From: Stegostoma tigrinum
Lineage: Eukaryota
Reading direction: 5' to 3'
Length of the DNA stretch: 64,000 nt
Assembly: GCF_030684315.1 (NCBI RefSeq)
Contig: NC_081365.1
Span: forward strand, 23,314,062 to 23,378,061
Part shown: piece after piece, positions 1-58,110 of the stretch
Numbering within the stretch: the first letter of the stretch is position 1
Layout: each line of letters begins with the position of its first letter
Program-made: the position numbers and the translations under genes
The notes under the pieces: generated by a model
The model's database searches: none
What the model was told of the DNA's origin: nothing
The model's input: only the letters and a program-made list of their open reading frames with translations

Positions 1-120
1 CCAAAGAACAAAATCATACTGACCCGTGTACCTTAAAAGTATTCCCCCTTTTCTGGTCACAGTTGACTACAGCAATTTAAATATAAATTAGTTGTGCACT
101 CATTTTCTGTCTCTTGGTTA

Positions 121-501
<381 letters not shown>

Positions 502-1331
502 TCAAGTTGCTTGCTCTTTGAGAGCAGCAAATCAATTAATCAGTCCTTCACACACAATGGCAAAGCAACCAAGGTAAATATCACACATTCTTCACCCAAC
601 ATAGTATTATTTACAAAAAAATTAAACAAACTAACACATAGCAACCTACCCGAAAGGAAGGCTAGCTCAAGCTCACATTGAACAACAAATAGATTTGATA
701 AAATATGTTTTAGATTCAATGTGGCAGCTCATAAAATAAAGAGGGATGCTCAGTCTAAATGGAAACAGCAAACAAATGAACTTCAGACAAGTTAATTAGA
801 AACAGACCTCAATAGCTTGAGCTCTCAAATCTGACCTTTTAAAGCAGCTCGAGATAAAACAAGGTACTACCAATATCATGTAAAAGAATGGAATGATACA
901 CTTAAAACTTTTTCTTAACTTTCACAATTTCGAACAAACTTAACCAGAAAGACTGCAAATTTACACATGTGGATTGTAAAGATATCCCAGTCCACGGAAC
1001 ATACAGTTTTGTGAATAAACTTTGAAAAGGGTGAACACAGAACACAGTTTAATTCACAAGTCAAGCAAGCAGAGAGACCTCATGATCTACTTGTGACTTC
1101 CATCTCTCAGTCATTAATAAACCTTAGCAACAGAATTAGCTTAGCCTGATGTACAATATATGGCATGAGATTTAAAAAAAACAAAATACATGGTCACAAG
1201 ATAATTATGGATAAGTAAGATCACTGGGTCCATCTTAATTAATTCAAGCAGAAAGACTCCTCACATCCAATGGTTTCTGAAAGATTCCAGTTTATCACCT
1301 CCATCCCAGCACATAGCAATCTAATCTTGTT

Positions 1332-1666
1332 GGGTGGCAAGGTGGCTCAGTGGTTAGCACTGCTGTCTCGCAGCGCCAGGGAAAGGTTCGATTCCACCCT
1401 CGACTGCTGTCTGTATGGAGTTTGCACGTTCTCCTTGTGTCTGCATAGGTTTCCTCCATGTGCTCCAGCTTCCTCCCACAATCCAAAGATGGGCAGGTTA
1501 GGTGGATTGGCCATACTAAATTGCCTGTAGTGGTCAGGGAGGTAGAGGGTATATATTAGGTGGGTCATAGGGGGAATGGGTCTGAGTAGGATGCTCTGAG
1601 GTTCAGTGTGGGCTTGTTGGGCCGAAGGGCCTGTTTCTACACTGTAGGGGTTCTATGGATTCTATG
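1332..1666 (+). mobile_element. HE1/V-SINE-type tRNA-derived SINE
   Basis: tRNA-like head with A box (GTGGCTCAGTGG) and B box (GGTTCGATTCC), central GGAGTTTGCACGTTCTCC...TTCCTCCCACA domain, CR1-like tail ending in TTCTATG repeats. Confidence 0.85.
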
Positions 1667-1813
1667 AAATTCACCCTCCCAGTCTGATCATTAGCAACTC
1701 CTTTGTCTATCCATCTGTCTTTCTTTCTCTTTGGGCTCTATCCTACCATTTACTCCCTTCCCCACCCACATCCCTATTTTCTGCATATAAACTGATGTTT
1801 TCCCAGCCACCAT

Positions 1814-1853
1814 GAGTTCTGAGGAAGGGTCACCAGACCCGAAACGTTAACTC
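1814..1853 (+). ncRNA. Minimal type-I hammerhead ribozyme motif in a PLE 3' terminal fragment (about 1670-1915)
   Basis: GAGTT-CTGAGGA-A-GGGTC(acca)GACCC-GAAA-CG-TT-AACTC: 5-bp stem I, intact core, 5-bp stem II, palindromic ACGT stem III, predicted GUU cleavage after 1848. Confidence 0.75.
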
Positions 1854-4232
1854 TGTTTTTTCCTTCACAGATGTTGCCAGAGCTGCTGAGCTTTTCCACC
1901 AACTTCTGTTTTTGTTTGGTGTGCACTCTTTAGGCCGAAGGACCTGTGGGGATTCTACAATTATATGATTCTGCCATTAGTCAGCTAATCCTCTATCCGC
2001 GCCGTGAAGTAGCTTGGGATGTTATTAGACAAGATCTGACACCAAGCTGTGTAAAGAGCTATCAAAAATCTTGGTCAAAAACAGCCAACTTTTAAAAGGG
2101 TCAAAAGAAGTTGTAGAGATTCAGAGAAGAAATTCCAGCACTTAGAATGTATACAGCCACCAGTATAAGGGGGAAAACAAAAAAAAGCAGAAGAGATCAA
2201 ATTTCAACGGACACAGAATTCTTGGAGGGTTGTACAGCTGGAGTTCACAGAGATAGGTATGACCACAGAGCAAGTACAGTGCTCATGGATTCTGTGGAGT
2301 TTAATCTCTTGGTTTTTGAGAGTACATTTAAAATATGTTTCTGTATAATGTTCAGACACACACTTGCTTGATATTTCCTAACTAAAAACAATACAACAGA
2401 TGTCTTCTAGAGCAGGGTTAGTATCCGTATTACTATTCCAGATGCTCTAGATTTGAGTCCCACTAGACAAGTGCATGACCACAAAATGTGGATTAGTAAC
2501 GTAGCCAATAAGATTGTTTGCCAAAATGCAAATCCTTCCAACATGTCAATGATAGACAATAAGAGAAGGAGAGACTCATGGGCAGCCACACTTGATGCAC
2601 AGTACAGACCCTCAAACTATAGCCATTGGCTTCAGGGTAGTGACCTCTTCCAGGAAAAAACAGCTATGGAGACAGATTCAAGAATACACTTCAACTGCCT
2701 CATACAGAAAATCTAAGAAGATGAGAAGAAGTCGTAATTACAACAGATGTTGGTGATCTGCAATTAAACCAGAATGTGTTGAAGAAACTCAGCAGGTCTG
2801 GCAGCATCTGTGGTGACAGAAACATGTTGCAAGGCCACTATAACTTCTGCAGAATTGTATTCAAAACTATTTCAGTTACCAAATATACTTGTTCAGTACA
2901 GTTTTTGCAGGATTCATTTTTGTATTAATTTATAGGATATGAGTGTTGTAGGCTTTGCCAGCATTTATTGCACATCCCTCGTTGGCCTGAAAAGGTGGTG
3001 ATGAGCTACCTTCTTGAACTTCTACAGTCCTTGGGCTGTCGGAAGACATCCCATGCATAAAAGACACACTAATTTCTTAACAAAAAAAAAAGAACTGCTG
3101 ATGCTGGAAATCAGATACAAAAACTGAAATTGCTGGAAAACCTCAGCAGATCTGGTGGCATCTGTGAAGAGAAATCGCAGTTACTGTTTCAGGTCCAGTG
3201 ACCCTTCCTTAGAACACTAATGCCTTTAGAGCATTATTGTCTATATTTCCAGTTCAAGATGGTGAGTGACTTGGAGGGGAACTTGAAGGTGGTGGTGTTC
3301 CCACGTATCTACTGCCTCCTAGATGGAAGTAGTCCTGTGTTTGGAAGGCACTGTCTAAGGATCTTTGGTGAATTTCTGCAGTGTATCTTGTGGATAAGTA
3401 CATACTGCAGTGAGTGAGCATCAGCAGTGGAGGATTGGATGTTTGCGGGTCTGGTGTCAATCAAGCACCTGCTTGACCTGTACGGTATCAAGTTTCTTGA
3501 GAGTTTTGGAGCTGCATCCATCCCGGCAAGTGGAGAGTATCCCATCATCCTCCTGACTTATGCCTTGCAGATGGTGGCTAGTGCTTGAGTAAAGTACATT
3601 TGGGAGAGTTTGTCGGGTAGGCAAGTTAAAAGAGAAAGGTCTAAAATAATTTCTTACTCCTTGTTACTCATGTCACTAACCAGTAAAACATTAATACTGT
3701 GTACCTTATTAATCCCGAACATCTTTTGAAACAGACAGACGTCAAATTAGACAGGAAATCCTTTACCTTCACCACCCCAGTGAAAAGTAATTCTCATAAC
3801 TACAACTTGGTAACTCTGTTAACATCCCAGTAAATCAGTGCTGGCACTTTACATAGCTTTATGATTTTTCATTTTATCGGGTTCTCTTGAAAAGACCATT
3901 AGTAAATATGACCCATACATGAGCAATTCTAATACTGCAATAAAGGACAAGGGCTGAAAGCACCATAAGCACAGCATCAAACTGCAAAACAGCAAACTTC
4001 CAGAATTAGTTTTGAGTTAAGCCATCCCCCACCTTCTATGCAATCTTCTTTGTACGAGCTATATTACATCTCACTGTTGGCGCGAACCGGAGTGAAATAC
4101 ATTAAAGTCAAATCTGATAGCTATAGATGTTCACAATCTCACTTACTAAAGATTTGTGAAACGTAGCAACAAACACGTGCTTGCAACAGGAAGCAAAGTC
4201 AATTTTAAGAAGCACAAGTTGCATATACTCAC

Positions 4233-4515
4233 ATGGATGGCGCTAGAAAACGTTGCCTGTAAAGGCTTCACAATGACCGGGCTGCAAACTCAACACAGCG
4301 AATCATCAGGGTTGAAATTGAAAAGTGGGAGGTTTCACTCCATGTGGCACCGGACCATTTTTTTTTGTTGCTTTGTTAACGTCATAACCTAAGTAATGAA
4401 GTAGAGTAAAAGCAATATTTGCAAAGTTAAAGTATTTTTAATTTTGAGAAAAAAACGTGCTTTTTTTAAAGGATTTGGCCATGAGCAGAAGGGATTATGG
4501 GGTTTGTAGTTTCTA
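4233..4515 (-). promoter_or_regulatory. GART: Candidate GART promoter and non-coding first exon
   Basis: Minus-strand donor CAT|GTGAGT at 4232-4227, local CpG enrichment, E-box CACGTG near 4174 and a ZNF143/SBS-like motif (minus strand ACTACAAACCCCATAATCC, about 4492-4510). The TSS cannot be placed from sequence alone. Confidence 0.5.
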
Positions 4516-4594
4516 ATTTGCTTTCTCTCTGGCCAGACTGCAAAGCGGATAATCAGTTAACAACGAGAATGTTTCTTTATAATAAGAATAAAAT

Positions 4595-4947
4595 TCTGCG
4601 GACGCTGGAAGTCTGGAGACGAGCACAGTAAATGCTGGAGAAACTCAGCAGATATGACAGGTCAGAAGAAGTGATACGACACATGAAACATTAACTGTTC
4701 CTCTTTTCACGGATGTTGCTCTACCTGCTGAGTTTCTCTCCCACATTTACTGTGCTCGTCTCCAGATTTCTAGCGTCTGCAGTATTACATTACTGCATTA
4801 CAAAGCAACATAGAGAATGCTGGAGAAACTCAGCAGGTAGAGCAACATCTATGGACAGAAATGTTTCAAGTGCGGTATCACTTCTTCTGACCTGTCATAT
4901 CTGCTGAGTTTCTCCAGCATTCTCTATGTTGCTTTGTAATGCAGTAA
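4595..4947. repeat. Two adjacent PLE-terminus-derived hairpins that are also inverted copies of each other
   Basis: Perfect 47-bp arms at 4790-4836 / 4901-4947. A second arm pair tctggagacgagcacagtaaatg / catttactgtgctcgtctccaga. Segment 4632-4677 is the reverse complement of about 4876-4921. Confidence 0.85.
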
Positions 4948-5864
4948 CGTCATCAATTTAGACTGATGGAATTTTAGCTTTGAGCCAGGGGCGAAATGTT
5001 CAACTGCAGATTTATTTTGGTGGATCAGCAGCTGAGATACATATAAATGAAGACAATAAATGTGCAGCTGTAAACAGGTGGTGAACAAGTACAATATTCT
5101 GAATTGCCTCCTGTGTTGAATGATTGTTTTGTTTCTAATGATTAGCACCTCGGTTCGGTACAAGTTGTTTCAGACAATGTTTCACCTCTGGTTTTGTGTT
5201 TCAGCAAGTTAGTTGGAAGTTGCACCAGGCCCAATTGTTCAGTGAGGCTTTGGCTTTTTAATAAGAAAGTAGTTTAGAAAGTACTACAGAAATTGTGGGC
5301 TGCTTTGAGTTTAGATCCTGTGCAAGATTATCTTAATATAGTTTGATCTGACTATTGTAGTGACAATATGTTTTTGTATTTGTCCTTTGAGCACCGTCTC
5401 TAATTTCCTCCACTTTTGCTGCCTTCCTCGGCTTGATTCATTTTTAGATAAGCGTGCAAGTTCACCGATGCGTCTTTTCAACTCCTCCCATGCACCCAAC
5501 AACAACATTGCTGTCATGTTAGGAACAGCAACTCTAGGTATCCTAATCCATTCTTGTAGGAACATGGGAACAGAAATAGGCTGTTTGCCCATTCAAGCTT
5601 GCTTCACCAATCAGTAAGATTGTGGCTGATCTGCAAGTGGTCCATGTTTCAGCTCTACTCGGGTCCCTCCCCACAACTATTTCTCTAGTACATTAATGAT
5701 ATCATTAGTGCTGCTTCCCTATCTCATTCAGAATTTTAAAAAGTTATCAATTTCACTTGAAATTTCCACCCTGTGCTCACCTTCACCTGATCCATCTCCT
5801 CCCTTCCCTTTGTCAACATGTGGGGATAGCTGGCCACCATCATCCACTACAAACTCTATGAGGG

Positions 5865-6085
5865 AGAAAATTACTGCAGATGCTGTAAAAAACTAATGCC
5901 GGAGATCAAAGTGGGTCAGACAGCTTCCATGGAGAAACAGCAAGCATACATTTCCAGTCTGGATGACTCTTCATCAGACTTTTCGAGTCTCTAATGAAGC
6001 GTCATCTAGACTCAGTGTTACTTTGCCCTCTCTCCATGGATGTTGTCTGACCCACTGTGATCTCCAGCACTGGTTGTTTCCACTA
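5865..6085. mobile_element. Fold-back pair of PLE 3' termini with a hammerhead-like motif
   Basis: Inverted arms around about 5985. The minus strand at 5977-5946 reads CTGATGA-A-GAGTC(atcca)GACTG-GAAA-TGTA. Confidence 0.6.
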
Positions 6086-6099
6086 AAAACCCACCAGTT

Positions 6100-6430
6100 T
6101 TTGATTTAATTAATTGCCAAATGTATTTTGTTACAAAATACACGGAAATGTTGTATAGTGTTGTCACTCTCCAGTACCATTTTAAAACACAGAAAAATAA
6201 ACCAAAAAACAGAATGTAAAGGCAGAAAAAGAAAGAAAAAGTGTTCAGTTTCAAAGTCCTCATTAAGTGCTCCACTAGGACAAGGTGGCCAGTCAAAAGT
6301 CCCTTCACTACACCTCTGCCACTGGAATGATGTTGCCATTTTTTGGTGCCATCCTGCCTCCACTGGTGCCCTCACCACTATGAGTCCTTGCTGGATCTTG
6401 CCAATACAAATGCTATGGTACCGCATCGGC
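6100..6430 (-). mobile_element. Unclassified non-coding retroelement 3' fragment (same family as 7080-8040)
   Basis: Its reverse complement matches the 7870-8040 tail (ttttctgtgttttaa-atggt...ttttgtaaca-aat...ggcaataaat). Confidence 0.6.
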
Positions 6431-6439
6431 CCAAATTCG

Positions 6440-8570
6440 ACTTAGCTTCTTGACAATTACCTGGAATGTACATCCTCACACCCTGCTTTCTGGACTCCAT
6501 TACACTGTCCCAGTTTTTCTATCTCTATTGCATCTGTTCTGATGATGCTACAAACTGCAATATGGAATGTCACCTTTATCCTCAATGGAGGATTCTCCGC
6601 CACCATGGTTGACAGGGCCCTGAGCCATACTCTCCAATACTTGTGGTGTGTCCTCCCACACACAACAACTACAGCATTCCCTTGGGTCCTTATTTTCACC
6701 CCACCAGCATCATGAGCTGCCATTTTCACCACCTCCAGCAGGATGCCACTGACGGACACATTTTCCCCTTCCCTCACTGGTCAGCCCTCCGCAGGGACTG
6801 TTCCCTCTGTGACACCTTGGTCACCTTCTCCTCCTCCACTTTGAACATCTCCATACCCCCATGGCACCTTCTCTTGTAACTGCAGAAGGTGCAACACCTA
6901 CCTGTTAGCCTCCACCTTCCTCACTATCCAAGGGCCCATTTACCTTCCAGGGTGAAGCAGCAATTTACCTGCACTTCACTCAACCTAGTCTGTACTTGCT
7001 TCTCAAATATGGTCTAATCTACATTGAGGAGGTGAATGGCAGGCTGGGTGACTGCTTCATGGAACACATACATTCTGGTAATATGGCGGTGGAGTACGGC
7101 TTCGGAGCAGGGGCCTCATCCACTTCGCTTTTCTTTTCCATTCTTTTTTCTTCATTCTTGTTTCATCTTTTAAAATATTTTTTCTCTTTTATTTTCCTTG
7201 CCTTTCGCTGAAGAGCACAGTCGTGGCACAAGAATTGGCACCAGCAACTAGGCCCAGCACAGTGGAGAGATTTTGGTTCTGCATTGGCAGCATCTGCATC
7301 AATGAGGTGGGGCCCAGTGCCAACTAGCACCCCAATAGGGTGGCATGGTGGCTCAGCGTTTAGCACTGCAGCCTCACAGCGCCAGGGACCCAGGTTCAAT
7401 TCCAGCCTCGGGTTACTGTCTGTGTGGAGTTTGCACATTCTCCCCGTGTCTGCATGGGTTTCCTCCCACAGTCCAAAGATGTGCAGGCTAGGTGAATTGG
7501 CCATGCTAAATTGCCTGTAGTGTTCAGGGGTGTGTGGGTTATAGGGGGATGGGTCTGGGTCGGATGCTTCAAAGGGCGGTGTGGACTTGTTGGGCCAAAG
7601 GGCCTGTTTTCACAGTCGGGAATCTAATCTAATCTAATCTTAATTCCAACTCATGGCTCTTGCGGCAGAGGCAAGTTTGGGCCCAATGTGATTGCGTTGG
7701 TGAGGTGGACTTATAGCGAACTCATGGCAGCGGTAGAGTCGAGTTTGGGCTGATGCGGTACCCGGCAGCTTCGGTGGTGAGGACTCAGTGGTGAGGGTAT
7801 CGGTGGAGTGAGATGGTAGAGTGAGATGGTGCTGTAGAGTGAGAATGTTCTGTCCATGATGGTGCACTTAACAAGGACTGTAAAGTTGAACATTTTTTCT
7901 TTTTATTTGCCTTTATATTCTATGTTTTGCTTTATTTTTCTGTGTTTTAAGATGGTGGCAGAGTGGCAACACAATACAACACTTTTCACTATATTTTGTA
8001 ACAGAATGCTCATGGCAATAAATAAGTCAAATCAAACCAAAAACGACCCTGAGATTTGGCTGCCTGCCACTTCAATACATCATGTTCCCTGGCCAGTATT
8101 TCTGTCTCGGGCTTGCTGCGGTGCTGTAGCAAAGCTCAGCACAAGCTGGAGGAACACATCTCATCTTCTGCTTGGGGATCCTGCAGCCTTCAGGACTCAA
8201 TATTGAGTTGAACAATTTTAGGGCCTAAACATTTGCATCCATGTCCTTTAGCCACTCCTATGCCCCAGGCTCCCCTGTCATGACATGGGCCACTTTCAGC
8301 AAATTTTCACCCACTCTTGGTCCATTTATCTCCTTTTCTCATTCCCTGGTCTATCAGCTAATCCTCTGACTGCCTAACTGTCTCTCTCTCTGTTCCATCT
8401 CCACAATTCTGCTCACTCCTACCCCCACCCCCTGTCATCACCATAAGTACCACCTTTTTCTAGCTACTATCAGTTAAGAGAAAAGGGTCTCTGGCCTTTA
8501 AACTTTAACTTTCCTTTCCGTCCACAGACGCTGCCAGACTGCTGAGTTTCTCCAGCGGTTTCTGCTTTTG
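6440..8570 (+). mobile_element. Decayed Penelope-like element interrupted by nested insertions (7080-8040)
   Basis: Degenerate RT-thumb/GIY-YIG similarity (LIYIEEVNGRLGDCFMEH near 7015-7070) resumes after 8045 and ends in the PLE 3' terminus with a degenerate hammerhead near 8470-8510. Confidence 0.7.
7338..7640 (+). mobile_element. HE1/V-SINE-type SINE
   Basis: Same head and core as 1332-1666; (AATCT)n tail. Confidence 0.85.
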
Positions 8571-9215: not shown

Positions 9216-9535
9216 TGCTGAGGGGCAGAGACAAAAGGTGATTCCACAGCTTGCTTTTCCAACTGGATGAATTTCCGGACATCTGTTCTTAATGTCTACT
9301 GAATGTTTTTGGAGGAGGTCAACAGTTTTGTTCAATGTGACAGACAAGAAAATTGCATTCACTGCTGGTGCGACATGTACGCAGTCCTGTCCCTTAAATC
9401 CCAGGAAGGAACGCGGTGTTTCTTTTCCTCTCTGTTAAGACCAAAAGTTTTTTTTTTGATTCATTAAATGCAAGGTGAAGTGGTCCCCTGCCGTGTTCCC
9501 GTACGGTATTAGTCATCAATCAGTGCGACGACAAT

Positions 9536-10615
9536 ATGCTAACAGCGAAGAGAAGTTGTGCTGTCACCTGTCGTGGAAGTGTTAGAATGCTTTCGGGTTA
9601 CAAGACCATTAGAGAGAGCCTCCGAGACTGCTACCGCCTGCTGAATGTACAGGAGAACTGTAGCCACCATGAAGTGAAGGAAGCTTACCTCAAACTGGTA
9701 AAGTTGCACCATCCAGACAGTGGTTCTGGGGCAGATCCTCGAAAATTCATCCAGGTGAAAGAAGCTTACAAGGCCGTGGTCAGACATATAGCTGAGAAAA
9801 GAAAGACACAGTCTGATGAAAGATCAGATGACGAGGAAGAGCAATCCAAATACATAGCACCTCAGCATAGACAGTACCTTAGCTTCGAAGGCATTGGCAT
9901 CGGGACACCAAGTCAACGAGAGAAACAGTACAGAAAATTCCGGATGAACCGTGCAACAGAGCAGGTGCTGGACTACAGAAAGCAGAAGCTGCAAGACCAG
10001 GATCTTGAGAACACTATGATGGTGAAAGATGTCCGGCAGAGCCAGAAGATAAAGATAACCCAAGCGGTGGAACGGTTGGTGGAAGATCTCATCCAAGAAT
10101 CAATGGCCAAAGGTGAATTTGACAATCTAAGTGGTAAAGGCAAGCCACTGCAAAAATTTTCACAGTATCCGTACATTGATCCCATGACTCATAACCTGAA
10201 CAGGATACTCATAGAAAATGGATATCAACCAGAATGGATTGTTCAGCAGAAAGAAATAAATCAAACCATAAGCAAGCTCAGAAGTGATATGGTGGGGTAT
10301 CGAAGAAAGCTTGGTGAGTCTCTCACCCTCTACAACCAGAAACAGTGGAATCTGAAATGTGAGCAATTCAGAGACGATATTAAGCAACTTAATAAAATGG
10401 TAGATCGTTTCAATTTAATTGTCCCGCTACTAAACAGGCAGATGCTGCACTTTAATCCAGAGAAGGAGCTTGCTATCATACTGAAGGAATACAGCGTGGT
10501 ATTGGAAGCGAGCAAGGCCACTTCAGAGGTTATGGAAAAATCAGCTGAGAGAAATGGTACACGAGGACATGGGAAAAACAGCCTGTTTTCTTGGATCAAA
10601 CTTTTTCTGAAATAA
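9536..10615 (+). CDS. DNAJC28: DnaJ homolog subfamily C member 28, single coding exon, 359 aa
   Basis: N-terminal J domain with HPD (KLHHPDSG), conserved PQHRQYLSFEGIG and DUF1992-type VEDLIQESMAKGEFDNLSGKGKPL...DPMTHNLNRILIENGYQPEWI. Flanked by GART and TMEM50B as in other vertebrates. AATAAA overlaps the stop codon, with more downstream (about 10933, 11593). Confidence 0.95.
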   Translation: MLTAKRSCAVTCRGSVRMLSGYKTIRESLRDCYRLLNVQENCSHHEVKEAYLKLVKLHHPDSGSGADPRKFIQVKEAYKAVVRHIAEKRKTQSDERSDDEEEQSKYIAPQHRQYLSFEGIGIGTPSQREKQYRKFRMNRATEQVLDYRKQKLQDQDLENTMMVKDVRQSQKIKITQAVERLVEDLIQESMAKGEFDNLSGKGKPLQKFSQYPYIDPMTHNLNRILIENGYQPEWIVQQKEINQTISKLRSDMVGYRRKLGESLTLYNQKQWNLKCEQFRDDIKQLNKMVDRFNLIVPLLNRQMLHFNPEKELAIILKEYSVVLEASKATSEVMEKSAERNGTRGHGKNSLFSWIKLFLK

Positions 10616-19072: not shown

Positions 19073-20274
19073 CTTCCCAGTTCTCCATTGTCCACCGAAA
19101 AATTGACCAGGCTGACAATACTCCACATGGCAGTCTTGTATAATAGTACAAGCCATTATGATATTAATTGTGGCATACTTCTGGGAATCCTCATCTAAAT
19201 GCCATTGCAAGTAAGCATGGCTCATGTACAGCTTTGTGAAGGACAATCCCGCAGGAGCTTTACATATAAATCCTCTACCCAAGGGATTGCAAAAAGCTGT
19301 TTACCATTTGTTTAGAATCCCTACAAAGACAAACCAATCTGTGTGGGTTCAAAATTGGTACAACCTCTGGGGTTTGATGATTCCATCACTTCCTAGCCTT
19401 CTAATTCCTGCCTCTACTTTTGCCTGCAAGATAAACTGCACTGAGCAGACTTTGCAGGATCAAAGATTTTCTGTCTGGTCAACATGTAAGGAGGCCTTGG
19501 CTCCTCTAATAGTCCCTAGAACATCCTGGAAGACACCGAGTATTTAATTAGGACTTTAGCCAGGCAGCTATTTTTTAATTGAAAAATATTGAGCCAACCT
19601 AGGTAAACATCTCATAAGCAATTCCATCTCACCAAGCTTGGCCCTGAGCCTTTTACTAAAAACAGTGATAACCAAACCAGCTGTTTCTCTTAAGGGACCT
19701 GAACTGCAGTTGTACATGCAATCTGTAAATGTTCCCTGGTATGGGTTCTCAATCTAGTCAAGGCCTTTCACAAACTTAAGGGGGAGTCCAGAGCGAATTT
19801 TGTTAAGAACCGGTTCTGCAATCACTGATACAGCCATGCCAGTACTGAATTCCATTAGCACTGGATGACCATTTAATAAGATGTTTAGTTTGATTGGTTC
19901 TGATTTGCACGTTGATAAACATTATAACTGTTCCAAACCAGATATAGGTGGACTTTCCAGGTATGAACTTTCTTGGTTTCCAGTCTCTGAGTTCTCTTAC
20001 TCAATTAAGTTCTATTGGAACTCTTTTGTCTTCTTGAGTCTGCTTCCCGGCATCAACTACCAAAGCTTGTCAGCAAGGATCCTGAAGAAAATTTTAATGG
20101 AGGCTTGGCTTTGTTTTGGGGTTTAGCTATAGGCTGACCTAGAGTCCCTCTGTTCAGGCTATGTCCTGAGTGAGGCCATGCACTTGCCTATGTTCAAGTG
20201 GTGTTTTGTAAGCACAGTCAGGCTGGCAGGACACGAATTCCATTGGAAAACCCTCCAACTCCTATGCTCCATAG

Positions 20275-20397
20275 ATAGTAGGAACTGCAGATGCTGGAGA
20301 ATCTGTGATAACAAGGTGTAGAGCTGGATGAACACAGCAGGCCAAAAACTCTGATGCTGCTTGGCCTGCTGTGTTCATTCAGCTCTACACCTTGTCA
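20275..20397. mobile_element. Short PLE-terminus hairpin nested in the Gypsy element
   Basis: acaaggtgtagagctggatgaacacagcaggccaa ... ttggcctgctgtgttcattcagctctacaccttgt inverted arms. Confidence 0.8.
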
Positions 20398-21369
20398 ACT
20401 CATATACTCCACTTGTTTTCCAATGATAAAGCCAGTTATGAGCCCGTTTGAAGTTTAGTCTGGCTTCAGCTAATAGGTGTTTTTGCACAGTTACATAATT
20501 AATCCCAAACACAACATGTCCTCTAAGCATCTCATTAAGGGTTAAGCCAAGTCACCTGCTTCTGCCAGTCATCTTGCTCTAACTAAAAGTCCCAATACGG
20601 AATCCCCTGGTTCTCGAATTGCCGAATAAAAACAATAGCATCTCAGAATTAGAGGTTCCTTGGGGTCATAATATTGCTTAACTATGTCCATGCATTCTCG
20701 AAACGGTTTAGTATCTAGTACCTCAGGGGAAGTTAGTCTCCTAATAATTGAAAAACCTGTAGCTCCACAGGCTGTCAGGAGTATCACTTGTTTCTTTTCA
20801 TTTGCCACAATGTCGTTTATTGGAAAAAATAACACATTCTTTCCACATACTGAGCCCAGTCCTTGATGGCAGGATTGAATGAGCCAAGCTTCCCAAACAA
20901 AGGCATGATGTAAGAAATGTTTAGCCCAACTCAAAACTGACCGTTGTGAGTGAGTTTCTTCAGCAACATGGTTTACTGTCATTGCCACTGAAATAATGCC
21001 ACAGAGGCTGATATCTTGCCACTAGTTCACCCTTTATTTACACATGAAAAGTCTTTGACAATATTACTGCCTCTTCAGAATCTTTGACACTTCTACTTTT
21101 ACCTATTCGGCAGGGCTCTGTGATTGTATGAGAGAAACAGCTCCATTCAAGGAACTCAAGCTCTGTGGCTGACCTCATTACAATCACTACAGTTTTGGCT
21201 TCAGAATTCTACCCTATAATATGGCAATTTGGTAGCTGAGCAGCAGGACTGAATATTTTGCGGACACCCCCATTTCTCCGCCTAACTCTCTCGGATCCAG
21301 TGAAGGTACAAGCTATTTGCAATTCTCCTCCCATTCAGCACTCAGCCATCAAAGTGTCACTCTAAGGGG

Positions 21370-21757: not shown

Positions 21758-22589
21758 GTTAGTTGTTTGCTTTTAGTTTAAAAAAGAATAACGGGAAAGA
21801 GACAGAGTGTGATTTGAGGGTAGGAAGTTTCTCTGACTATGTCCTTTTCTGTGACCGGGTGATTGCCCTGTTCCTGTGATTGTGAAGTGGGTAATTCTGG
21901 AGGAAGAAGCTGCCGCAAACCCTGGAATAATCATCTGCTTGCATCTGAGTCCTGTCCATCCCTCTCAGCACAAGGTTACTAGCTCTAAAGATGCTTTAAC
22001 GACATGCTTTTACCGTCTGGGCGTGATCGTTAGTTGTCACCTTGAACCAACTGGAGGATAGTGACAACTGTTGGATGACACTATTTCCTCCCAGTTAGTT
22101 CTTGCCTTTTTAAAATCCTATTTGCTGACTGTGAAAAACTCCACATTTTTGTGGGTCAGTGGAGGGGTAGCTTGTGCAGAGACAAAATGTAATCGACCTT
22201 GTTTGACTAGTCACTTGTTCCAATTCGGTATAGGAAGTTATAGCAGGAAGTGTTTCTTGTTCTTTGAATTAACCTGTTAGGACAGATTATGACACACCTC
22301 TGGAACTACTTAGACTGGAACCTTCAGAGTCAGCGGCTGTGACACGCAGTGAGTGATTCCTCACTCTTATGCCCCACCATCTTTAGATGCCCTGATATTG
22401 TCCTTCCCCTTCCATTAGATCAGGAATGGGGATGTGTAATGATGATTGCAAGTGTTTGGTACTGTACCATTTGGTAGAAGTGCCACTGGGCTAATAATCC
22501 AAAAATCCATGCTCATGCTGTAGGGATATTGTTTCAAATCATGAATTCTGGCACATAGCATTTTCTTTTTTTAAAGCCTGATCAGACAG

Positions 22590-24358
22590 ATTCCCTCCGC
22601 TTCTTCCTGTCCCGCAGGCCCGACCAGGCCCCCTCCACCGACACTCTCATCCGCCTAGCGGAACTCGTCCTCACACTCAACAACTTCTCTTTTGACTCCT
22701 CCCACTTCCTACAGACTAAGGGGGTGGCCATGGGCACCCGCATGGGCCCCAGCTATGCCTGCCTCTTTGTAGGTTACGTGGAACAGTCCATCTTCCGCAC
22801 CTACACAGGCCCCAAACCCCACCTCTTCCTCCGGTACATTGATGACTGTATCGGCGCCGCCTCTTGCTCCCCAGAGGAGCTCGAACAGTTCATCCACTTC
22901 ACCAACACCTTCCACCCCAACCTTCAGTTCACCTGGGCCATCTCCAGCACATCCCTCACCTTCCTGGACCTCTCAGTCTCCATCTCAGGCAACCAGCTTG
23001 TAACTGATGTCCATTACAAGCCCACCGACTCCCACAGCTACCTAGAATACACCTCCTCCCACCCACCCTCCTGCAAAAATTCCATCCCCTATTCCCAATT
23101 CCTCCGCCTCCGCCGCATCTGCTCCCACGATAAGACATTCCACTCCCGCACATCCCAGATGTCCAAGTTCTTTAAGGACCGCAACTTCCCCCCCCACGGT
23201 GATTGAGAACGCCCTTGACCGCGTCTCCCGCATTTCCCGCGACACCTCCCTCACACCCCGCCCCCGCCACAACCGCCCCAAGAGGATCCCCCTCGTTCTC
23301 ACACACCACCCTACCAACCTCCGGATACAACGCATTATCCTCCGACACTTCCGCCATTTACAATCCGACCCCACCACCCAAGACATTTTTCCATCCCCAC
23401 CCCTGTCTGCTTTCCGGAGAGACCACTCTCTCCGTGACTCCCTTGTTCGCTCCACACTGCCCTCCAACCCGACCACACCCGGCACCTTCCCCTGCAACCG
23501 CAGGAAATGCTACACTTGTCCCCACACCTCCTCCCTCACCCCCATCCCAGGCCCCAAGATGACATTCCACATTAAGCAGAGGTTCACCTGCACATCTGCC
23601 AATGGTGTATACTGCATCCACTGTACCCGGTGCGGCTTTCTCTACATTGGGGAAACCAAGCGGAGGCTTGGGGACCGCTTTGCAGAACACCTCCGCTCAG
23701 TTCGCAACAAACAACTGCACCTCCCAGTCGCAAACCATTTCCACTCCCCCTCCCATTCTCTTGATGACATGTCCATCATGGGCCTCCTGCACTGCCACAA
23801 TGATGCCACCCGAAGGTTGCAGGAACAGCAACTCATATTCCGCCTGGGAACCCTGCAGCCATATGGTATCAATGTGGACTTCACCAGTTTCAAAATCTCC
23901 CCTTCCCCCACTGCATCCCTCAACCAGCCCAGTTCATCCCCTCCCCCCACTGCACCACACAACCAGCCCAGCTCTTCCCCCCCACCCACTGCATCCCAAA
24001 ACCAGTCCAACCTGTCTCTGCCTCCCTAACCGGTTCTTCCTCTCACCCATCCCTTCCTCCCACCCCAAGCCGCACCCCCAGCTACCTACTAACCTCATCC
24101 CACCTCCTTGACCTGTCCCCTCCCTACCTCCCCACCTACACCCTCTCCACCTATCTTCTTTACTCTCCATCTTCGGTCCGCCTCCCCCTCTCTCCCTATT
24201 TATTCCAGTTCCCTCCCCCCATCCCCCTCTCTGATGAAGGGTCTAGGCCCGAAACGTCAGCTTTTGTGCTCCTGAGATGCTGCTTGGCCTGCTGTGTTCA
24301 TCCAGCCTCACATTTTATTATCTTGGAATCTCCAGCATCTGCAGTTCCCATTATCACT
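22590..24358 (+). mobile_element. Young 5'-truncated Penelope-like element (RT + Cys-rich linker + GIY-YIG; Neptune-like)
   Basis: RT motifs GVAMGTRMGPSYA and FLRYIDD; linker CNRRKCYTC...FTC; GIY-YIG GVYCIHCTRCGFLYIGETKRRLGDRFAEH. One frameshift in the C-run near 23190. Pyrimidine-rich 3' region with hammerhead. Confidence 0.92.
24229..24260 (+). ncRNA. Minimal hammerhead ribozyme motif in the PLE 3' terminus
   Basis: CT-CTGATGA-A-GGGT(ctag)GCCC-GAAA-CG-TC-AG: canonical core and GUC triplet, but stem I is only about 2 bp. Confidence 0.65.
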
Positions 24359-25474
24359 GACATACCGCTTCTGGTTGTGGCTCGAACCTGGGTCTTTCGG
24401 TTTCGAATCTAGAATATAAAGCTGGTCCCAGTGTTGGTGGCCAACTACCATACATTGTCATGGAAACCCATCTGGTTTAGTAATGTGTATACTGGAAGCT
24501 AGTCATTTAATAGGATCCTTTTCTTTGCAAACATAAAATTTACATGTGCTGTGGCTTTTTCAACTCAACAAAATAAGTGTTAGCCATTTGCTTGTTCATT
24601 TCACAGGACCTTGACCATCAGTTTCAACACGCCTGGTCTAAAATTTAAACAAAACTTGACATTTAATAGTTGATCATCATGAATTGGTGCACTCTTCATG
24701 GCATCTTCTGTACGGTTGGTGAATAGATTCAATCAGTACATTGTTCTTGTTCTTGTATTCTTCTTGTTGTTCTTCTGTATAAATGCTGGTTTCTCTTCAA
24801 GTTGCTATTCTTGTAAATTACACCCAAAAAAACGATGGTGAATCCCCCACAGTCCTGAGACCTAATTTGTCTTTTAAGGTATTCATATGTGCTGCAGAGT
24901 CTTGTGGGTTCTTACATTGCTGAGTTAGGCATCCTTCCCACTATTAATGTTGAAGGTTCTTGTATAAATGCAGGTTGTAGCTGTCTTGTGTGTAATCTTG
25001 ATGCTGATATTTTGTATGGAAGATATTAAGGCAGGAAAAATATGACTTGTATGTTTTTAAAAAATGTGGGTACCAAATGAGCACTTCCTATCTCGGCTGT
25101 AACATCCATTTGATTGAATGAGGCCACTATGCATTATCTGCTTGCTTTTTAAATTTTTGTTTCAAATTGTGTTGAAATACATGTATAGGTACTATAATGC
25201 TGCGTTTGTTGTAGGAAGAGTCATCGGTAATTCACTCCTCATTTTCCATGGCCTATCTAAGTTAATAAAAGCTAGATAAAGCTGATTGCTTCATCAAGTG
25301 AACCCTGAAAAAGTATCACTTATTCTAAACTAGCCGCCTTCTGATCAGGTTGCTAAATAATCTTTCTGTTCCAGCAAATGCTTTTCTTTAGAAAGAGCAG
25401 TTGCTGCTTTCCAACTTCCCTGTACAGGCAACTTTTACATTCCTTGGAAGGCAACAATAGTATGTGTTACAGAG

Positions 25475-27590
25475 ATACTAGGATCTGCTGATGCTGGAGA
25501 ATCTGAGATAACAAGATGTAGAGCTGGATGAACACAGCAGGCCAAGCAACATCAGAGGAGCAGGAAAGCTGATGTTCGGGTCAAGACCCTTCTTCAGAAA
25601 TGGGGGAGGGCAAGGGGATTCAGAAATAAATAGGGAGGGGGTAGCCGGATAGAAGATGGATAGAGGAGAAGATAGGTGAAGAGGAGACGGACAGGTCAAA
25701 GAGGCGGGGATGGAGCTCATAAAGGTGATTGTAGATGGGGAGTTATGGAGGGGAGAGGTCAGTCTGGGGAGGACAGACAGGTCAAGGAGGTGGGATGAGG
25801 CTGGTTGGTAGGTAGGAGATGGGGGTGGGCCTTGAAGTGGGAGGAGTGGGTAGGTGGGAGGCAGGACAGGTTAGGGAGGCACGGATGAGCTGTCCTGGTT
25901 TTGGATGTGGTCAGATGCGGGGAGATTTTGAAGCTTGAAGTCCACAGGGTTCCCAAGCGAAATATGAGTTGCTGTTCCTGCCACCTTTGGGTGGCATTGT
26001 TGTGGCACTGCAGGAGGCCCAGGATGGACATGTTGTCCAAGGAGTGGGAAGGGGAGTTGAAATGGTTCGTGATTGAGAGTTGCAGTCATTTGTCACAAAG
26101 AGTGTAGGTGTTCCGCAAAGCAGTCCCCAAGCCTCCACTTGGCTTCCCTGATGTAGAGCAGGCCACATCGGGAACGACGGATGCAGTATACCACATTAGC
26201 AGATATGCAGGTGAACATCTGTTTGATGTGGAAAGTCTTCTTAGGGCCTGGGATGGGGATGAGTGGGGAGCTGTAGGGGCAGTTTTATACCTGTGGTTGC
26301 AGGAAAAAGTGCCAGGACTGGTGGGGAATGTGGAGCGGACAAGGGAGTCACGGAGCGAGTGGTCCCTCCGGAAAGCCGATAAGGGTGGGGAGGGAAAAAT
26401 GTGAAAAATGCAAGAGACGCGGTTGAGGGTGCTTTCAACCACTGTGCGGGGAGTTGCGGTCCTTGAATCTGCAGTGGTTGAAAACACCCTCAACCGTGTC
26501 TCTTGTATTTCCTGCAACTCACCCCTCACACCCCATCCTTGCAATAGCAACCAAAACAGAATCCCCCTCATCATGTACCACCCCACCAACCTTTGGATCC
26601 AACGCATCATCCTCTGGCATTTCCACCAAATGCAATCTGACCCCACGACCAAAGACATTTTTCCCTCCCCACCCTTATCGGCTTTCCGCAGGGACCGTTC
26701 TGTCTGTGGCTCCCTTGTCCGCTCCACACTCCCCTCCAGCCCCGCCACCACTTTTCCCTGTAACTGCAGGAAGTGCTACACCTGTCCCTACACCTGCTCC
26801 CTCACCCCCATCCCAGGCCCCAAGATGACCTTCCACATCAAACAGATGTTCACCTGCACATCTGCTAATGTGGTATACTGCATCCACTGCTCCCGTGGTT
26901 CTCTCGGACACATCAGGGAAAACCAAGCGGAGGCTTGGGGACTGTTTTATGGAACACCTACACTCTGTTTGTGACAAACAATTGCACCGCTCAGTCGCGA
27001 ACCATTTCAATTCCCCCTCCCACTCCTTGGACAACATGCCCATCCTGGGCTTCCTGCAGTGCCACAACGATGCCATCCAAAGGTTGCAGGAACAGCAACT
27101 CATATTCCGCTTGGGAACCCTGCTGCCCAATGGTATCCATGTGGACTTCACAAGCTTCAAAACCTCCCCTCCCCTGACTGCAATCTCAAAACCAGCCCAG
27201 CTCGTCCCCACTTCCCTAACCTGTCCTTCCTCCCACCTAGCCATTCCTCCTACTTCAAGCCCCACCCCCATCTCCTACCTACTAGCCTCATCCCGCCTCT
27301 TCAACCTGTCTGTCCTCCCTGGACTGACCTATCCCCTCCCTAACTCCCCAGCTGCACTCTCATTTACTGGCTCCAACCCCAACTCTTTAACCTGTCTGTC
27401 TCCTCTCCATTTATCTTCTCCTCTATCCATCTTCTATCCGCCTCCTCCGCCCCTGTCCCTATTTATTTCGGAATCCCCTTCCCCTTCCCCATTTCTGAAG
27501 AAGGGTCTATTCCTGAAACGTCAGCTTTCCTGCTCCTCTGATGCTGCTTGGCCTGCTGCTTTACCAGCTCTGCACCTTGTTATTTTACAT
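25475..27590. mobile_element. Fold-back pair of PLE 3' halves (minus 25475-26450, plus 26468-27590)
   Basis: Both arms encode GIY-YIG remnants and end in the hammerhead-bearing terminus (about 25567-25598 minus, about 27495-27524 plus). Symmetry centre about 26460 (ggttgagggtgctttcaaccactg ... cagtggttgaaaacaccctcaacc). Confidence 0.9.
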
Positions 27591-29969: not shown

Positions 29970-30312
29970 AGAGATAGTAGGAACTGCAGATGCTGGAGAA
30001 TCTGGGATAACAAGGTGTAGAGATAAAAGTGTGGAGCTGGATGAACACAGCAGGCCAAGCAGCATCTTAGGAGCTCAAAAGCTAACATTTCGGGCCTAGA
30101 ATCCACAGACCTAGGTAAATGTTCTGGCGACTTGGTTCAAATCCTGCCAAGGCAGATGGTGGAATGTGACTTAAGGAAGGCAATAACAAGGTGTAGAGCT
30201 GGATGAACACAGCAGGCTCTGAAGAGGGGTCTAGGCCCGAAACGCCAGCCTTCCTGCTCCTCTGATGCTGCTTGGCCTTCTGTGTTCAAACAGCTCTACA
30301 CCACCTTGTTAT
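29970..30312. mobile_element. PLE terminus fragment plus hairpin derivative
   Basis: Arms taacaaggtgtagagctg / cagctctacacc-accttgtta enclose CTGAAGA-GGGGTCTAGGCCC-GAAACGCC at 30219-30246 (cleavage triplet mutated to GCC). Confidence 0.75.
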
Positions 30313-41079: not shown

Positions 41080-42935
41080 GACAAAAGAACTGCAGATCCT
41101 GTAAATTAGGAACAAAAAGTAGTTGGAGAAGCTCAGCAGGTCTGGCAGCATATGTGAAGGAGAAAACAGTTAATGTTTTGGATCCGGTAACCCTTCCTCA
41201 GAACTGTTCCTCGGAGTTCTGTAGAGGAGGTCACATTGGGAGCAGTGGATGCAATAGACCACACTGGATGTGCAGGTGAACCTCTGATCTGAAACGTTTG
41301 TTTGTTTCCTTTGGATGGAGGTGAGGGGGGAGGTGTAGGGGCAGGTGGAGCACTCCCTGCTGTTGCAGGGAAAGATGGTTTGCCTAGTGGGGAGTGTGGA
41401 ATGGACGAGGCTGTCGCGGAGAGTGTGGTCCCTACAGAAGGCAGATGGATTACAGAGGGAAATATATCTTTAGTTATGAGATCGGATTGTAGGTGGCGGA
41501 GAATGATACGTTGGATATGGAGGTTAGTGAGGTGATACATGAGGACAAGGAGGATTCTGTCTTTGTTTTTGTTGTGGGGAGGGGATTTGAGGGCAGAGAT
41601 GAGGTTGAGTGCATTTTCCACCACCGAAGGTGGGGGGTGGTGGGGTGTTACGACCCTAGAATTAAGAGGACATCTCGGAAGTTCGGGAGTGGAATGCCCC
41701 ATCTTGTGAGCAGATGAGGAGGAGCAGTTGGGAGTATGGAGTTGCGTTCTTGCAGGTAGGTGGGTGAGAGGAGGTGTAGTCTAGGTAGCTGTGAGAATTG
41801 GTTGGCTTGAAGTAGATGTCGGTTTCGAAGTGGTTACGGGAGATGGAGACAGAGAGGTGTGGGAAGAGTGGAGAGAGGTATCAGATGCTCCGGGTGAACT
41901 AGAGGCTGGTGTGAAAAGTGTCAGTAAGTTTGATGAACTGTTCAAGCTCATGAGGAGCATGAGGTAGCACAGGAATAGGTGGGGAATTGTGCCCATGCAA
42001 CAGCAGAAAAGGACTGTTCCATATACGAAGAGGCAGGCGTAGCTTGGGCCCGTATGGGTGTCCTCCTTAGTCTGTAGGAAGTGAGAGGAATTAAAGGAGA
42101 TGTTGTTAAGGGTAAAGACGAGTTCTTTTAAGCAGATGAGGGTGTCAGTGGAGAGGGACTGGTTAGGCCCGTGGGAGAGGAAGAAGCAGAGGACTTCTTG
42201 GCCGTGTGCAGGGATTGGATGTACTTGGTGAAGATGAGGTGTTGGAGGCCAAGGAATTGGAAGTCCTGGAGGAGGTGAAGGGCAAGGGGAGTTCCTGGAA
42301 TAGTGGGGACAAAAGAGTCAAGGTAAGCGGAGATAAGTTCAGTGGGGCAGGAACAGGCAGAGACAGTAGGTTGACCGGGGCAGTCGGGTTTGTGGATTTT
42401 TGGGCAGGAGATAGAAACGGGCAGTGTGGCGTTAGGGAACAGTTTGGTTGGGAGGTCACCTTAGGTGATAAGGTTATGGATGGTTTGGGAGATGATGTTT
42501 TGGTGGTCAGGGATAGGGTCATGATTGAGGGGATGGTGGGAGGAGGTGCCAGGGAATTGGCATCTGGCCTTGGTGATGTAAAGATCAGTGTGCCATACCA
42601 CAACTGCACCTCCCTTATCTGCGCGTTTGGTGAGGTTAGGGTTGGAGCAGAGGGCTGCACGTTCTGTGGGGGAAGAGGCTGAAGTGAGTGAGAGGGGTGG
42701 AGAGGTTGAGGCGATTGATGTTGCTGTGCCAGTTGGAAATGAAGAGATTGAGGGAGGGTAGGAGGCCTTTGGGTGGTATCCAGGAGAATGTGGTGTGTTG
42801 GAGGTGGGAGAAGTGGTCTTTAGAGGGTGGGTTAGACTCATGGTTAAAGAAATAAGCGCGGAGGCGGAGGAAACACTTCGCCCAAGCGTGAGTGGAATTC
42901 ATTGTGTGGGTGGAGTGGAATGAAGTTGAAGGTGA
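41080..42935 (-). mobile_element. Decayed Penelope-like element covering the RT N-terminal region to the 3' terminus
   Basis: RLRAYFF, RADKGGAVVVW and VVENALN...RIILRHLQSD remnants. Terminus 41206-41167 reads CAGTT-CTGAGGA-A-GGGTT(accg)GATCC-AAAACATT-AACTG (CpG-decayed hammerhead). Confidence 0.85.
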
Positions 42936-45900
42936 AAAAGTCAATTAACAGAAATATTCACAGGTTTTGTAATTTCTGACGTTGATGAGGTTGTTGCCAA
43001 TTTGCAGCATGCTTTCAGTATTTTTTTACAAAAATAAAAACCTTGGACCAGAAAGTTATGGTAAATATATGGTGGTGCACATAATTCTGTCATACTAATG
43101 TATACAATCAATCAACTGTAATAGATACTCATTTGTATGGTATTTAATGTCATCGTAAAATTTTAATTCATGTTTTTCTCTTTTCTGGAATTTAAAAATA
43201 ATTCAGATATGCAGTCTGCCCTATTAGATGTGATCATTTTGATTTTGTTTTAGGTTAAGCAGAAAAATGATAATGATGGGATAGCCAGATTCGCTCCTCT
43301 TTTTAATTCCTTATCATAGGATGGTAAAAATGTTATGCATTTAGTTTAAAAAAGGAGTTCACTTTTTCTAATTTATTTTTGTGAGGATGATTTTGTATGG
43401 AAGTGTGGAATTGAACATATAATTCTTGTACTTAGAAATTAGGTGAAAAGAATTAGCAACTGCAATTCAAGTTATAGAATACTTAAGTAGATGAAGAATT
43501 AAGGTGAACAACTGCAAATGACCAATAAAGGAAGCTAGAAAATTGTCAGTTAATTTAAAAAGTTTTGAACAATGGCACTCTGGTTTGCATGTACCAGTGC
43601 TCTGAGGGGGCACTAAACAAATAAACTGAAAGAACTGCAGATTTTAGAAATTGGAAATAAAAACAGAAATTGCTGGAAATGCTCAGCAAGAGTGGCAGCA
43701 TCAGTGGAGCGAAATCAGTTACTCCACAGATGCTGCCAGACTTGAGTGTTTCCAGCAGTTTCTGTTTGAAAGATGTCCGTTCGCTCAGTAAGCTTTTTCG
43801 TTGTAAAAGTCAGGCAAAGCAGAGTATTGTGGAAGTTTTTATTTTGGGCTGCCTGTCAGATCGTTCTAAGAATTTTACCTGATCTGCTCAAATGACTACG
43901 TTGGTCATGTAGCCCTTTTCCAATAACTTCTGCTTTTTGCTTGTTTCTGATCTCTAGCATCTGCTCTTCTTTGTTTTATTCTTTCTCATTTTCTTTGGCC
44001 CCCATTCCTGTGATTCAAGAAGTGGAGGGTGGAGGGGAGGTTGCCAGGGGGAGAAACTGTTGATTTACATGAGGAAGGCAGAGAAATGACTGAAGGACTT
44101 TATTCTTGGAGTGTGGGACAAAAATTCAGATTCCATGCCAGTAAATTGCCAGTTTGTACTGTGATACCAGCATGGTGTCCCTCAGGAAACGGTTTTACTG
44201 TTATGTTATTTTTGATCGAATTTTCATTTCCTCTGCAATCAAATTTAACTTTGTATTGCAGTCCCACTTGTACTGAAGTTGAATACTGTAGTTTTAAACA
44301 CCCACTGAAGTGTTGCGCAATCCACTTTCTTTTGGACTTAGTTTAATAATTTGGGCCAGTTCATTGTTGCATGTTATGTGCTTAATCATTTGATTTTATT
44401 CCAAAAGAGAGAAGACCTGTTACTATTAAATCTGTGGGTTGTTGCCAGTATATGTAATTGTGATGTTTTACTGTGAACTGTAGTGAAGTAATGTTTGTCC
44501 TTCATGAATATGTTCATGTTGCTGCAAGTCTCTTTTGAAATTCCGTTTTGTAAATAAAAGAGGAAGTAGTATTACAGTAAATATGGTGTTTTGATTAAAT
44601 AAGGTAATTTGGGCCAGTGTCGAATTGGTGAGGTGTTGTGGCACTGTTACTTTGAGTACAGATAATGAACGTGATTTATCTTAATTCAGTTTTTTCCAGA
44701 GAACTCTTGTGGTGTAGTGGTAGTGTCTCTACTTGTGAGACAGGAGGTCCAGGTTCAAAGATGTGTAATTATATTTCTGAAAGGTTGATTAGAAAATATC
44801 CAATTTCACTGGGATCTTTCAGTCATGTTTGTAGCATCTGCCGATGAAAATTATTTCAGAATTTCTGCTTACATTATAATTTTGAGGATTGTATTTTCAT
44901 TTTGAGTGTTTTGTTGAGGTATGTAGTAAAGTGCATTTTCACTGATTTGCAAGTCAGTGACTGGAGAGCATGAATGCAAGATGATCATCAGAAGTTAAGG
45001 ATCAAATTCAGACTTCTAAGAATCTATTGCATTAGGGTTTTCAAAGCCCTATCTATGAAAGTACCGAGAACCAGTATCTCTTCTCTTGAAGCTCAGTGCC
45101 AATTTTTTTTTGATCACATTCCTCTGAAGATGGTGAATTCAGAGATTCATGACCCTTTGAGAGAATTAATTCCTCCTCTTGTGAAATTTACCTATATTTA
45201 AAGGCAGAATATACTTGTAAGTTATTGCTAAGTTGGACTGTGTAATAACTTGCAAAAGATAAACAACAATTTTTTTCTTAAAAATAGAATAAATGCAGTA
45301 AGACATTAGTGAATAACAGAGGAATTGAACTCTGGCTGACACCTTCAGAGAGTCACCACAGGCATCCTGAACTAAATTGACAACATCCCTGGTGTAAGAT
45401 TGAGACTTTTGAAATCACTCATTTCAAGGCTTGAGAAATTTGCCGTGTTTAAATTAGCATGTCCAACAATCTCTCTCCTCAAGCCAGGCCATTGCAAACT
45501 GTAGGTGGTAGTTACATAGCCGAAAATCATAAGTTCAGGTCAGCAATAACTACCTTGGTAGCCAAACTCTCATAGCTGTGTAGCCCCTCTAAATCTGTGC
45601 ATTTTTATTTAATAGTGAGTATTGTCTAACCAGTTGATACTTGAGGCCAGGTTGCTTTCTTGTATAAACCCATGGAAATTTTAGGTGCTTTTTGCATTAC
45701 ATTCAAGTAGCATTCTGCCACTCTTCTTGTAAGTCTATTATCCCCTCCTTCTCCAACCTTCCCACCTATCACTGTTGCGGGTATCTCAGCACTCACTTAT
45801 TCTCTCAGGTCTGGGATCATTGCAATTTTCACGTCCTTAATTGGGTCACAATGGGAAGAAACTTGGGAAGCACTTTTTGAAACTACACAGCCACAAAGTA

Positions 45901-57832: not shown

Positions 57833-57896
57833 AAAAAAAATATATATCTGGTGTATTGCCAATGGGGATGCAAGTTTAAAAATACAAAGAATTAAA

Positions 57897-58110
57897 CCAG
57901 GTGTAGAGCTGGATGAACACAGCAGGCTAAGCAGCATGAGAGGAGCGGGAAAGTTAATGTTTTGGGTCTGGACCCCCTTTCTCTGAAGAAGGGTCCAGAC
58001 CCGAAATGTCAGCTTTCCTGCTGCTCTGATGCTGCTTGGCCTGCTGTGTTCATTCAGCTCCACACCTTGTCATCTCAGATTCTCCAGCATCGGCAGTTCA
58101 TACTATTTCT
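57897..58110. mobile_element. Fold-back mini-element of two PLE termini with hammerhead motif
   Basis: About 75-bp inverted arms around about 57980; plus-strand CTGAAGA-A-GGGT(ccag)ACCC-GAAA-TGTC at 57983-58010. Confidence 0.85.

Follow-up and report, generated by a model that had tools for sequence, protein, structure and literature searches.

A complete minimal type-I hammerhead core can be read on the forward strand at positions 1814–1853 of the window, the 64,000-nucleotide stretch of shark DNA analyzed here. The locus raises the question of how such a motif came to lie in what is very likely the first intron of GART, and of what it does there. The motif itself adds little beyond an extension of the 2014 min-HHR finding to a shark genome. 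The more useful point is that short copies of the same repeat end at the 5′ edge of the hammerhead and not at its cut site.

Anatomy and genomic setting of the motif

The 5′ strand of stem I (AGUU) occupies 1815–1818, and its 3′ strand (AACU), placed by the sequence and the contig alignment, occupies 1849–1852. The core C3–A9 (CUGAGGA) lies at 1819–1826 together with an extra A (A1826) between positions 9 and 10.1. Stem II, at 1827–1840, consists of the arms GGGUC (1827–1831) and GACCC (1836–1840) with the loop ACCA between them, and G1827–C1840 is the G10.1–C11.1 pair of min-HHRs. These elements are followed by G12–A14 (GAA, 1841–1843), the loopless palindrome ACGU (1844–1847) and U17 (1848), in hammerhead numbering. 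The copy has no mismatch to the min-HHR core CUGANGA...GAAA...UH, and the cleavage site is predicted between 1848 and 1849. Helix III of the palindrome, which has no loop, can form only between two molecules. The rest of the pseudo-LTR runs from 1853 to 1917, and its end at 1916–1917 is a common 3′ boundary.

An earlier note on this DNA had described the core, the extra A, stem II, GAA, ACGT and T1848 as given here, and the sequence bears out each of them; its cut after 1848 is in line with the core register, in which U17 is 1848. The five-pair stem I of that note (GAGTT/AACTC, 1814–1818 and 1849–1853) is correct for this copy, but the fifth pair, G1814–C1853, is not family-wide. We aligned contigs from four runs to the 601 bases of 1670–2270. 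Position 1814 was C, not G, in ~99% of the aligned depth in runs X1, X5 and X14 and in all of the aligned depth in run X18. G1814 is private to this copy, and the C found across the family indicates that the family stem I has 4 bp (AGUU/AACU).

Stems I and II formed as described in the minimum free energy fold of the motif. When folded in context, stem II had pairing probabilities of 0.94–1.0 and stem I of at most 0.033. The folding energy alone was unremarkable (z −1.48; 22 of 200 shuffles folded as well), and the core pattern matched once in the window and in none of 100 shuffles. An Rfam search of window positions 1–6000 at E ≤ 10 gave seven matches, none of them to a hammerhead family. The strand-swapped dimer (−22.1 kcal/mol) had no advantage in stability over a pair of monomers (−24.0 kcal/mol) under a nearest-neighbour model, which ignores core tertiary contacts and protein help.

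The antisense placement within GART intron 1, proposed in the same note, is very likely correct, judging from the gene features read in the sequence. A GARS_N match was found on the minus strand (E = 2e-16), and the first coding exon of GART spans 207–355 (−), with ends read from the sequence. The start codon (ATG at 351) comes four bases downstream of an acceptor AG; candidate donors of the form GTRAGT are at 4232 and 4146. The CpG observed/expected ratio was highest at 4001–4500. A SINE-like repeat at 1335–1666 (+), separate from the motif, abuts the 5′ side of the Penelope-like element (PLE) piece, and further copies of its 3′ part occur at other places in the window; we presume that it is tRNA-derived from what appear to be A and B boxes. 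At 4596–4950, next to the likely GART promoter, a hammerhead-derived unit of another subfamily is present as two inverted copies, and the same inverted 3′ piece stands in front of each. A single-exon DNAJC28 open reading frame (ORF; Pfam DnaJ and DJC28_CD) lies head-to-head with GART at 9479–10615 (+). Human DNAJC28 and GART are presumably on the same strand, and the gene order may differ in the window.

Association with Penelope-like elements

Five remnants of PLE ORFs, recognized by similarity to reverse transcriptase (RT) and/or GIY-YIG, were found in the window, and each is followed by a sibling motif on the same strand. They are located at 22562–23888 (+; motif at about 24231), 26471–27155 (motif at 27495), 26400–25921 (25597), 42197–41137 (41201) and 5635–8216 (+; about 8477). 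The best-preserved remnant (22562–24360, +) retains RT, a CX4CxxC linker, GIY-YIG, the 3′ flank, a sister-subfamily hammerhead at about 24231 and the tail. The fragmented remnant at 5635–8570 (+) carries a decayed hammerhead at about 8476 that belongs to the same subfamily as the 1814–1853 motif. The closest relatives of the 22562–23888 ORF were proteins of Stegostoma tigrinum (94% identical) and Rhincodon typus (88% identical), and its long relatives carry the RT and GIY-YIG Pfam domains; the ORF fragments of the window themselves fall under the curated Pfam cut-offs (RVT_1, 20 vs 29.6 bits; GIY-YIG, 21.2 vs 22.6 bits). The segment CNRRKCYTC in 23184–23888 matches the CX2-5CxxC linker between RT and endonuclease, which PMC8557442 describes for Neptune PLEs and reports to be shared by Nematis. 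The linker motif and the domain order suggest a Neptune-type element.

Two of these loci have further features. At 22559–24360 (+) the element looks young, with RT and endonuclease frames that are nearly open and a single frameshift near 23190; the annotated end of a zebra shark protein 94% identical to it (P0001) reads through the hammerhead. At 41137–41210 (−) the ORF is broken inside the endonuclease and joined directly to a hammerhead copy, and a short duplicated piece of the core lies just upstream of that copy.

No ORF is left at the motif locus, and the link to PLEs there is made indirectly, through the shared flank and the family. The flank at 1670–1813 (+), recognized by alignment and high contig depth, has its left end cut by the SINE-like repeat. 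It resembles the stretch that separates the end of the PLE ORF (8216) from the decayed hammerhead at about 8476 (93 of 132 positions identical; alignment score 85.5 vs 70.5 for the best of 200 shuffles). We rejected the DNA left of the SINE as a continuation of this flank, since its score of 29 was below the shuffle mean of 36 and no PLE-flank similarity was detected in it.

Iterative nhmmer searches of the window recovered 26 related pieces from one seed and 24 from another, and these form at least two main subfamilies. In run X1, 43,101 contigs fell on the 601-base stretch, and the summed depth was 1.7–1.8 million over the motif against ~23 on unique flank; this depth is not a copy number and shows no more than that the family is very abundant. 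The repeat family is also present in organisms B and C, and a contig of organism B covers 1945–2270. A flank-anchored pattern gave no match in metagenome or viral contigs. The sibling motifs after ORFs, the shared flank and the abundance support the proposal of the earlier note that PLEs have dispersed this minimal type-I hammerhead across the genome.

The core, palindrome and N17 are intact in 4 of 21 window copies, the 1814–1853 copy among them (stem II was outside this test). The nearest plus-strand siblings, at 4662, 5990 and about 8476, have broken cores, and the closest intact plus-strand copy, at about 24230, belongs to another subfamily. An optional tail of ~30 nt was present in 7 of the 17 window copies checked and is absent from the copy at 1814–1917. 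Self-comparison of 1600–1950 revealed no adjacent repeat, so that the motif is single and not head-to-tail. Head-to-head inverted pairs of pseudo-LTR fragments occur at 5898–6069, 20270–20411, 30036–30312, 43630–43767 and 57895–58112. The pair at 5978/5990 suggests a stem II variant, GAGUC/GACUC, which is compensatory relative to GGGUC/GACCC.

Comparison with known hammerheads and evidence for selection

Min-HHRs were described in the pseudo-LTRs of metazoan PLEs by Cervera and de la Peña in 2014 (PMC4209133), and all of their sequence features are present in the 1814–1853 motif, which confirms, at the level of sequence, that it is a hammerhead of a known kind. The shared features are the type-I fold, a helix I of 4–5 bp, the lack of a helix III loop, an extra nucleotide between 9 and 10.1, the G10.1–C11.1 pair and a palindromic 15.2–16.2; thus the extra A and the ACGU palindrome are already published traits. 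Min-HHRs likewise occur as thousands of mostly solo copies and close opposite-strand pairs, and are tied to Neptune, Poseidon and Xena PLEs of vertebrates (PMC4209133). In contrast, helix II has 5 bp in the shark motif and 7–8 bp in the Schistosoma min-HHR families of that paper. The hosts that it names are fishes, coelacanth, Xenopus and reptiles, and no shark is named in the portions of its text and the two supplementary files covered. We found no paper that names shark PLE hammerheads; supplements outside our search may list this family.

With regard to activity, a min-HHR of Schistosoma was inactive as a monomer and cleaved weakly as a dimer (PMC4209133). The small PLE hammerheads of Lünse, Weinberg and Breaker (RNA Biol 14:1499), as summarized in PMC6765202, share the short palindromic stem III with the shark motif and cleave in a dimer-dependent manner. 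The hammerhead of the Anolis carolinensis Poseidon element PAc (Frangieh et al. 2024, PMC11167929) cleaved only with the protein of the element and was dispensable for insertion in vitro; uncleaved RNA was the dominant insertion substrate, and no RNA-seq ends were reported at the cut site. The PAc hammerhead precedes the sites of RT initiation, which set off an optional tail of 30–40 bp, and an optional tail is also seen in the shark family. PAc differs in that it belongs to the Poseidon clade and its hammerhead overlaps the start codon, whereas the shark ORF has the Neptune/Nematis cysteine linker. As in the Neptune-clade PLEs of Craig et al. (2021, PMC8557442), the shark element has RT followed by a C-terminal GIY-YIG and a CX2-5CxxC linker, together with 5′ truncation, inverted 5′ copies and an optional tail; the role of the PLE hammerhead is still called unclear there. 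Non-LTR retrozymes (Li et al. 2026, bioRxiv 10.64898/2026.07.22.740005) also contain a type-I hammerhead related to pseudo-LTRs, but they are defined by tandem units that each contain a hammerhead, and the shark copy is single. Retrozymes were reported in the one chondrichthyan genome sampled in that preprint, and 8 of 9 dimers of Xenopus retrozymes showed no cleavage.

The hammerhead fold is selected between families and not within inserted copies. In the alignment of 21 window copies, 71.9% of stem cells pair, and both-sided changes were found in 6 of 8 pairs (2 of 500 shuffles), a result that is inflated by kinship among the copies. We also scanned metagenomes with a pattern that fixed the core and part of stem II and left stem I and N17 free, and obtained 123 matches in 120 loci. 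The 75 distinct motifs among them, which come from few related families so that the counts are not independent, had a mean of 2.41 Watson–Crick pairs in stem I, compared with 1.44 ± 0.09 after permutation (0 of 2000 as high) and 0.05–1.49 in shifted registers. N17 was C in 51, U in 19, A in 2 and G in 3 of these motifs, i.e. C, U or A in 72 of 75. A PLE ORF was near 29 of the 123 matches, and 26 of these 29 ORFs were upstream on the same strand. In motifs L005, L006, L024 and L077, stem I seems to start two bases later and N17 is read as G or A, a register that implies a variant with a longer helix III or a loop.

The earlier note named as a refuting result a core no more conserved than its flanks across genomic copies, and the window copies gave this result: at non-CpG positions, core and flank diverged alike (0.085 in the core vs 0.078 in the flank for long copies; 0.118 vs 0.103, respectively, for short copies). 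This comparison is a poor test, because neutral decay is what one expects of copies once inserted, and selection is visible as covariation of the stems between families. CpG-type changes in the X1 depth amounted to 30% at G12, 58% at the palindrome CG, 77% at a flank CpG and 87% at the loop II CpG. This pattern is consistent with cores that are fixed in the source elements and later decay neutrally, and alignment bias may contribute to it. The 1814–1853 copy has 0 changes at 13 core positions, which is compatible with selective retention, youth or chance.

Origin of the copy in GART

Taken as an explanation of the locus, it is highly probable that the motif is the minimal hammerhead of a Neptune-type PLE pseudo-LTR, which would have been inserted, truncated at its 5′ end, on the opposite strand of the first intron of GART. 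By analogy with papers on other species, the loopless ACGU of an active element could not close within one molecule; two motifs may then exchange strands, with cleavage after U17 that is weak or assisted by the element's protein. The 1814–1853 copy itself is probably inert, since it lies off the GART transcript strand and lacks an intact partner on its own strand in the vicinity.

A chance resemblance to a hammerhead would agree with the modest folding z-score and the empty Rfam result, but every core position is exact, no shuffle matched the pattern, stem I covaries outside the search pattern, and the features agree with the published min-HHR consensus (PMC4209133). The shuffles, the metagenome stem I pairing and the covariation in the window reduce this reading to a negligible probability, and we regard it as ruled out. 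Domestication of the copy, in which self-cleavage would regulate either GART or an antisense or divergent transcript, is very improbable. The intact core, kept by few window copies, the gain of a fifth stem I pair and the distance of only ~2.4 kb from the likely GART promoter would speak for such a role. Nevertheless, the motif is antisense to the GART pre-mRNA, its nearest plus-strand siblings are broken, its stem I hardly forms in context, and copies are so abundant in X1 that intact intronic ones are expected by chance.

Somewhat less improbable, and still unlikely, is a non-autonomous SINE-like or retrozyme-like unit of ~100–135 nt, reaching from the hammerhead to the tail and mobilized by PLE proteins. 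The sharp shared ends at 1815–1817 and 1916–1917 resemble those of such a unit, the start of most short window copies falls on the hammerhead's 5′ side (see below), and animal retrozymes have been proposed as pseudo-LTR derivatives (bioRxiv 10.64898/2026.07.22.740005). The 1814–1853 copy, however, has ~145 nt of upstream PLE flank and so is not such a unit. There is no head-to-tail array, with one go-back joint among the 15 joints listed, and the short copies fall in the same subfamilies as the ORF-linked copies and often form inverted pairs, which are typical of PLE insertions (PMC8557442).

The 5′ boundary of the short copies

A long upstream flank was present in 6 of the 21 window copies, and the other 15 were short. 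Thirteen of the 15 start at about −9 to +1 relative to C3 (7 by BLAST, 6 judged), and two start inside the core. Among six further window fragments that contain only the 3′ part, one (43723, minus strand) starts ~1–3 bases from the cut site. The leading 5′ loose ends in the contigs of X1, X5 and X14 were at 1815, 1816 and 1817, with 1258, 1079 and 757 contigs, respectively, in X1; the private G1814 can shift starts from a few bases upstream onto 1815. The sequences upstream of these loose ends showed no consensus (agreement ~0.33). No loose end at the cut site (1849) was found among the 24 loose-end rows listed, beyond which there were 1086 more, and 11 of the 15 joints listed connect 1815–1817 to the opposite strand at 1853–1884. 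Short copies in three organisms start sharply at the 5′ strand of stem I and not at the predicted cut site, and in many cases a 3′ piece is attached to them in inverted orientation. The metagenome families have a vaguer 5′ boundary than the shark copies: upstream homology of 7–27 nt was found in 7 of 27 loci of the largest family and of 11–21 nt in 2 of 22 loci of the next. All of these loci were chosen for an intact core, a choice that makes them uninformative on starts at the cut site.

These results suggest that the short copies were copied from uncut RNA with a 5′ end near 1815–1817. Run-off of the RT at this RNA 5′ end on uncut templates is the simplest reading, and it agrees with the in vitro result for PAc (PMC11167929). 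If the run-off reading holds, the element RNA would have its 5′ end on the first base of stem I. Around 1815 the family sequence fits the initiator pattern YYANWYY, with A1815 as +1. We also considered the core as a downstream promoter element at +28 and rejected this idea, since loop II of the sister subfamily is 3 nt shorter and breaks the spacing. The more complete account would be that the short copies are fossils of the 5′ end of the element RNA, in which the RT was primed at the tail of the 5′ pseudo-LTR, crossed an uncut hammerhead and ran off at 1815–1817, the ribozyme being mostly silent on the templates that were inserted. We offer this account tentatively, and rather doubt than assert it in full.

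The boundary could have two other causes. The RT may stall at the folded or protein-bound motif, or the RNA may have a 3′ splice site at the CAG of 1814–1816. The family majority sequence of 1792–1816 (+), with C at 1796 and 1814, has a branch point-like element, a pyrimidine run and a CAG acceptor before the core, as judged against consensus patterns. The sister subfamily is without the acceptor AG. The Penelope element of D. virilis has an intron whose end coincides with the 5′ side of helix I (PMC4209133). We found no relevant paper on the 5′ boundary of PLEs in a literature search that had subscription papers and several supplements outside its reach.

The run-off reading, if true, would provide in vivo, genome-scale evidence on what PLE hammerheads do, and shark genomes contain enough PLE copies to map the end points of the cDNA. 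Intact cores were found in 4 of the 6 long and none of the 15 short window copies (post hoc Fisher p = 0.0025). The idea that short copies arise solely from catalytically dead RNAs was rejected, as the non-CpG core divergence of short copies equals that of their flank (p = 0.69; nine short copies, leaving out the two that start inside the core and the four of minor subfamilies).
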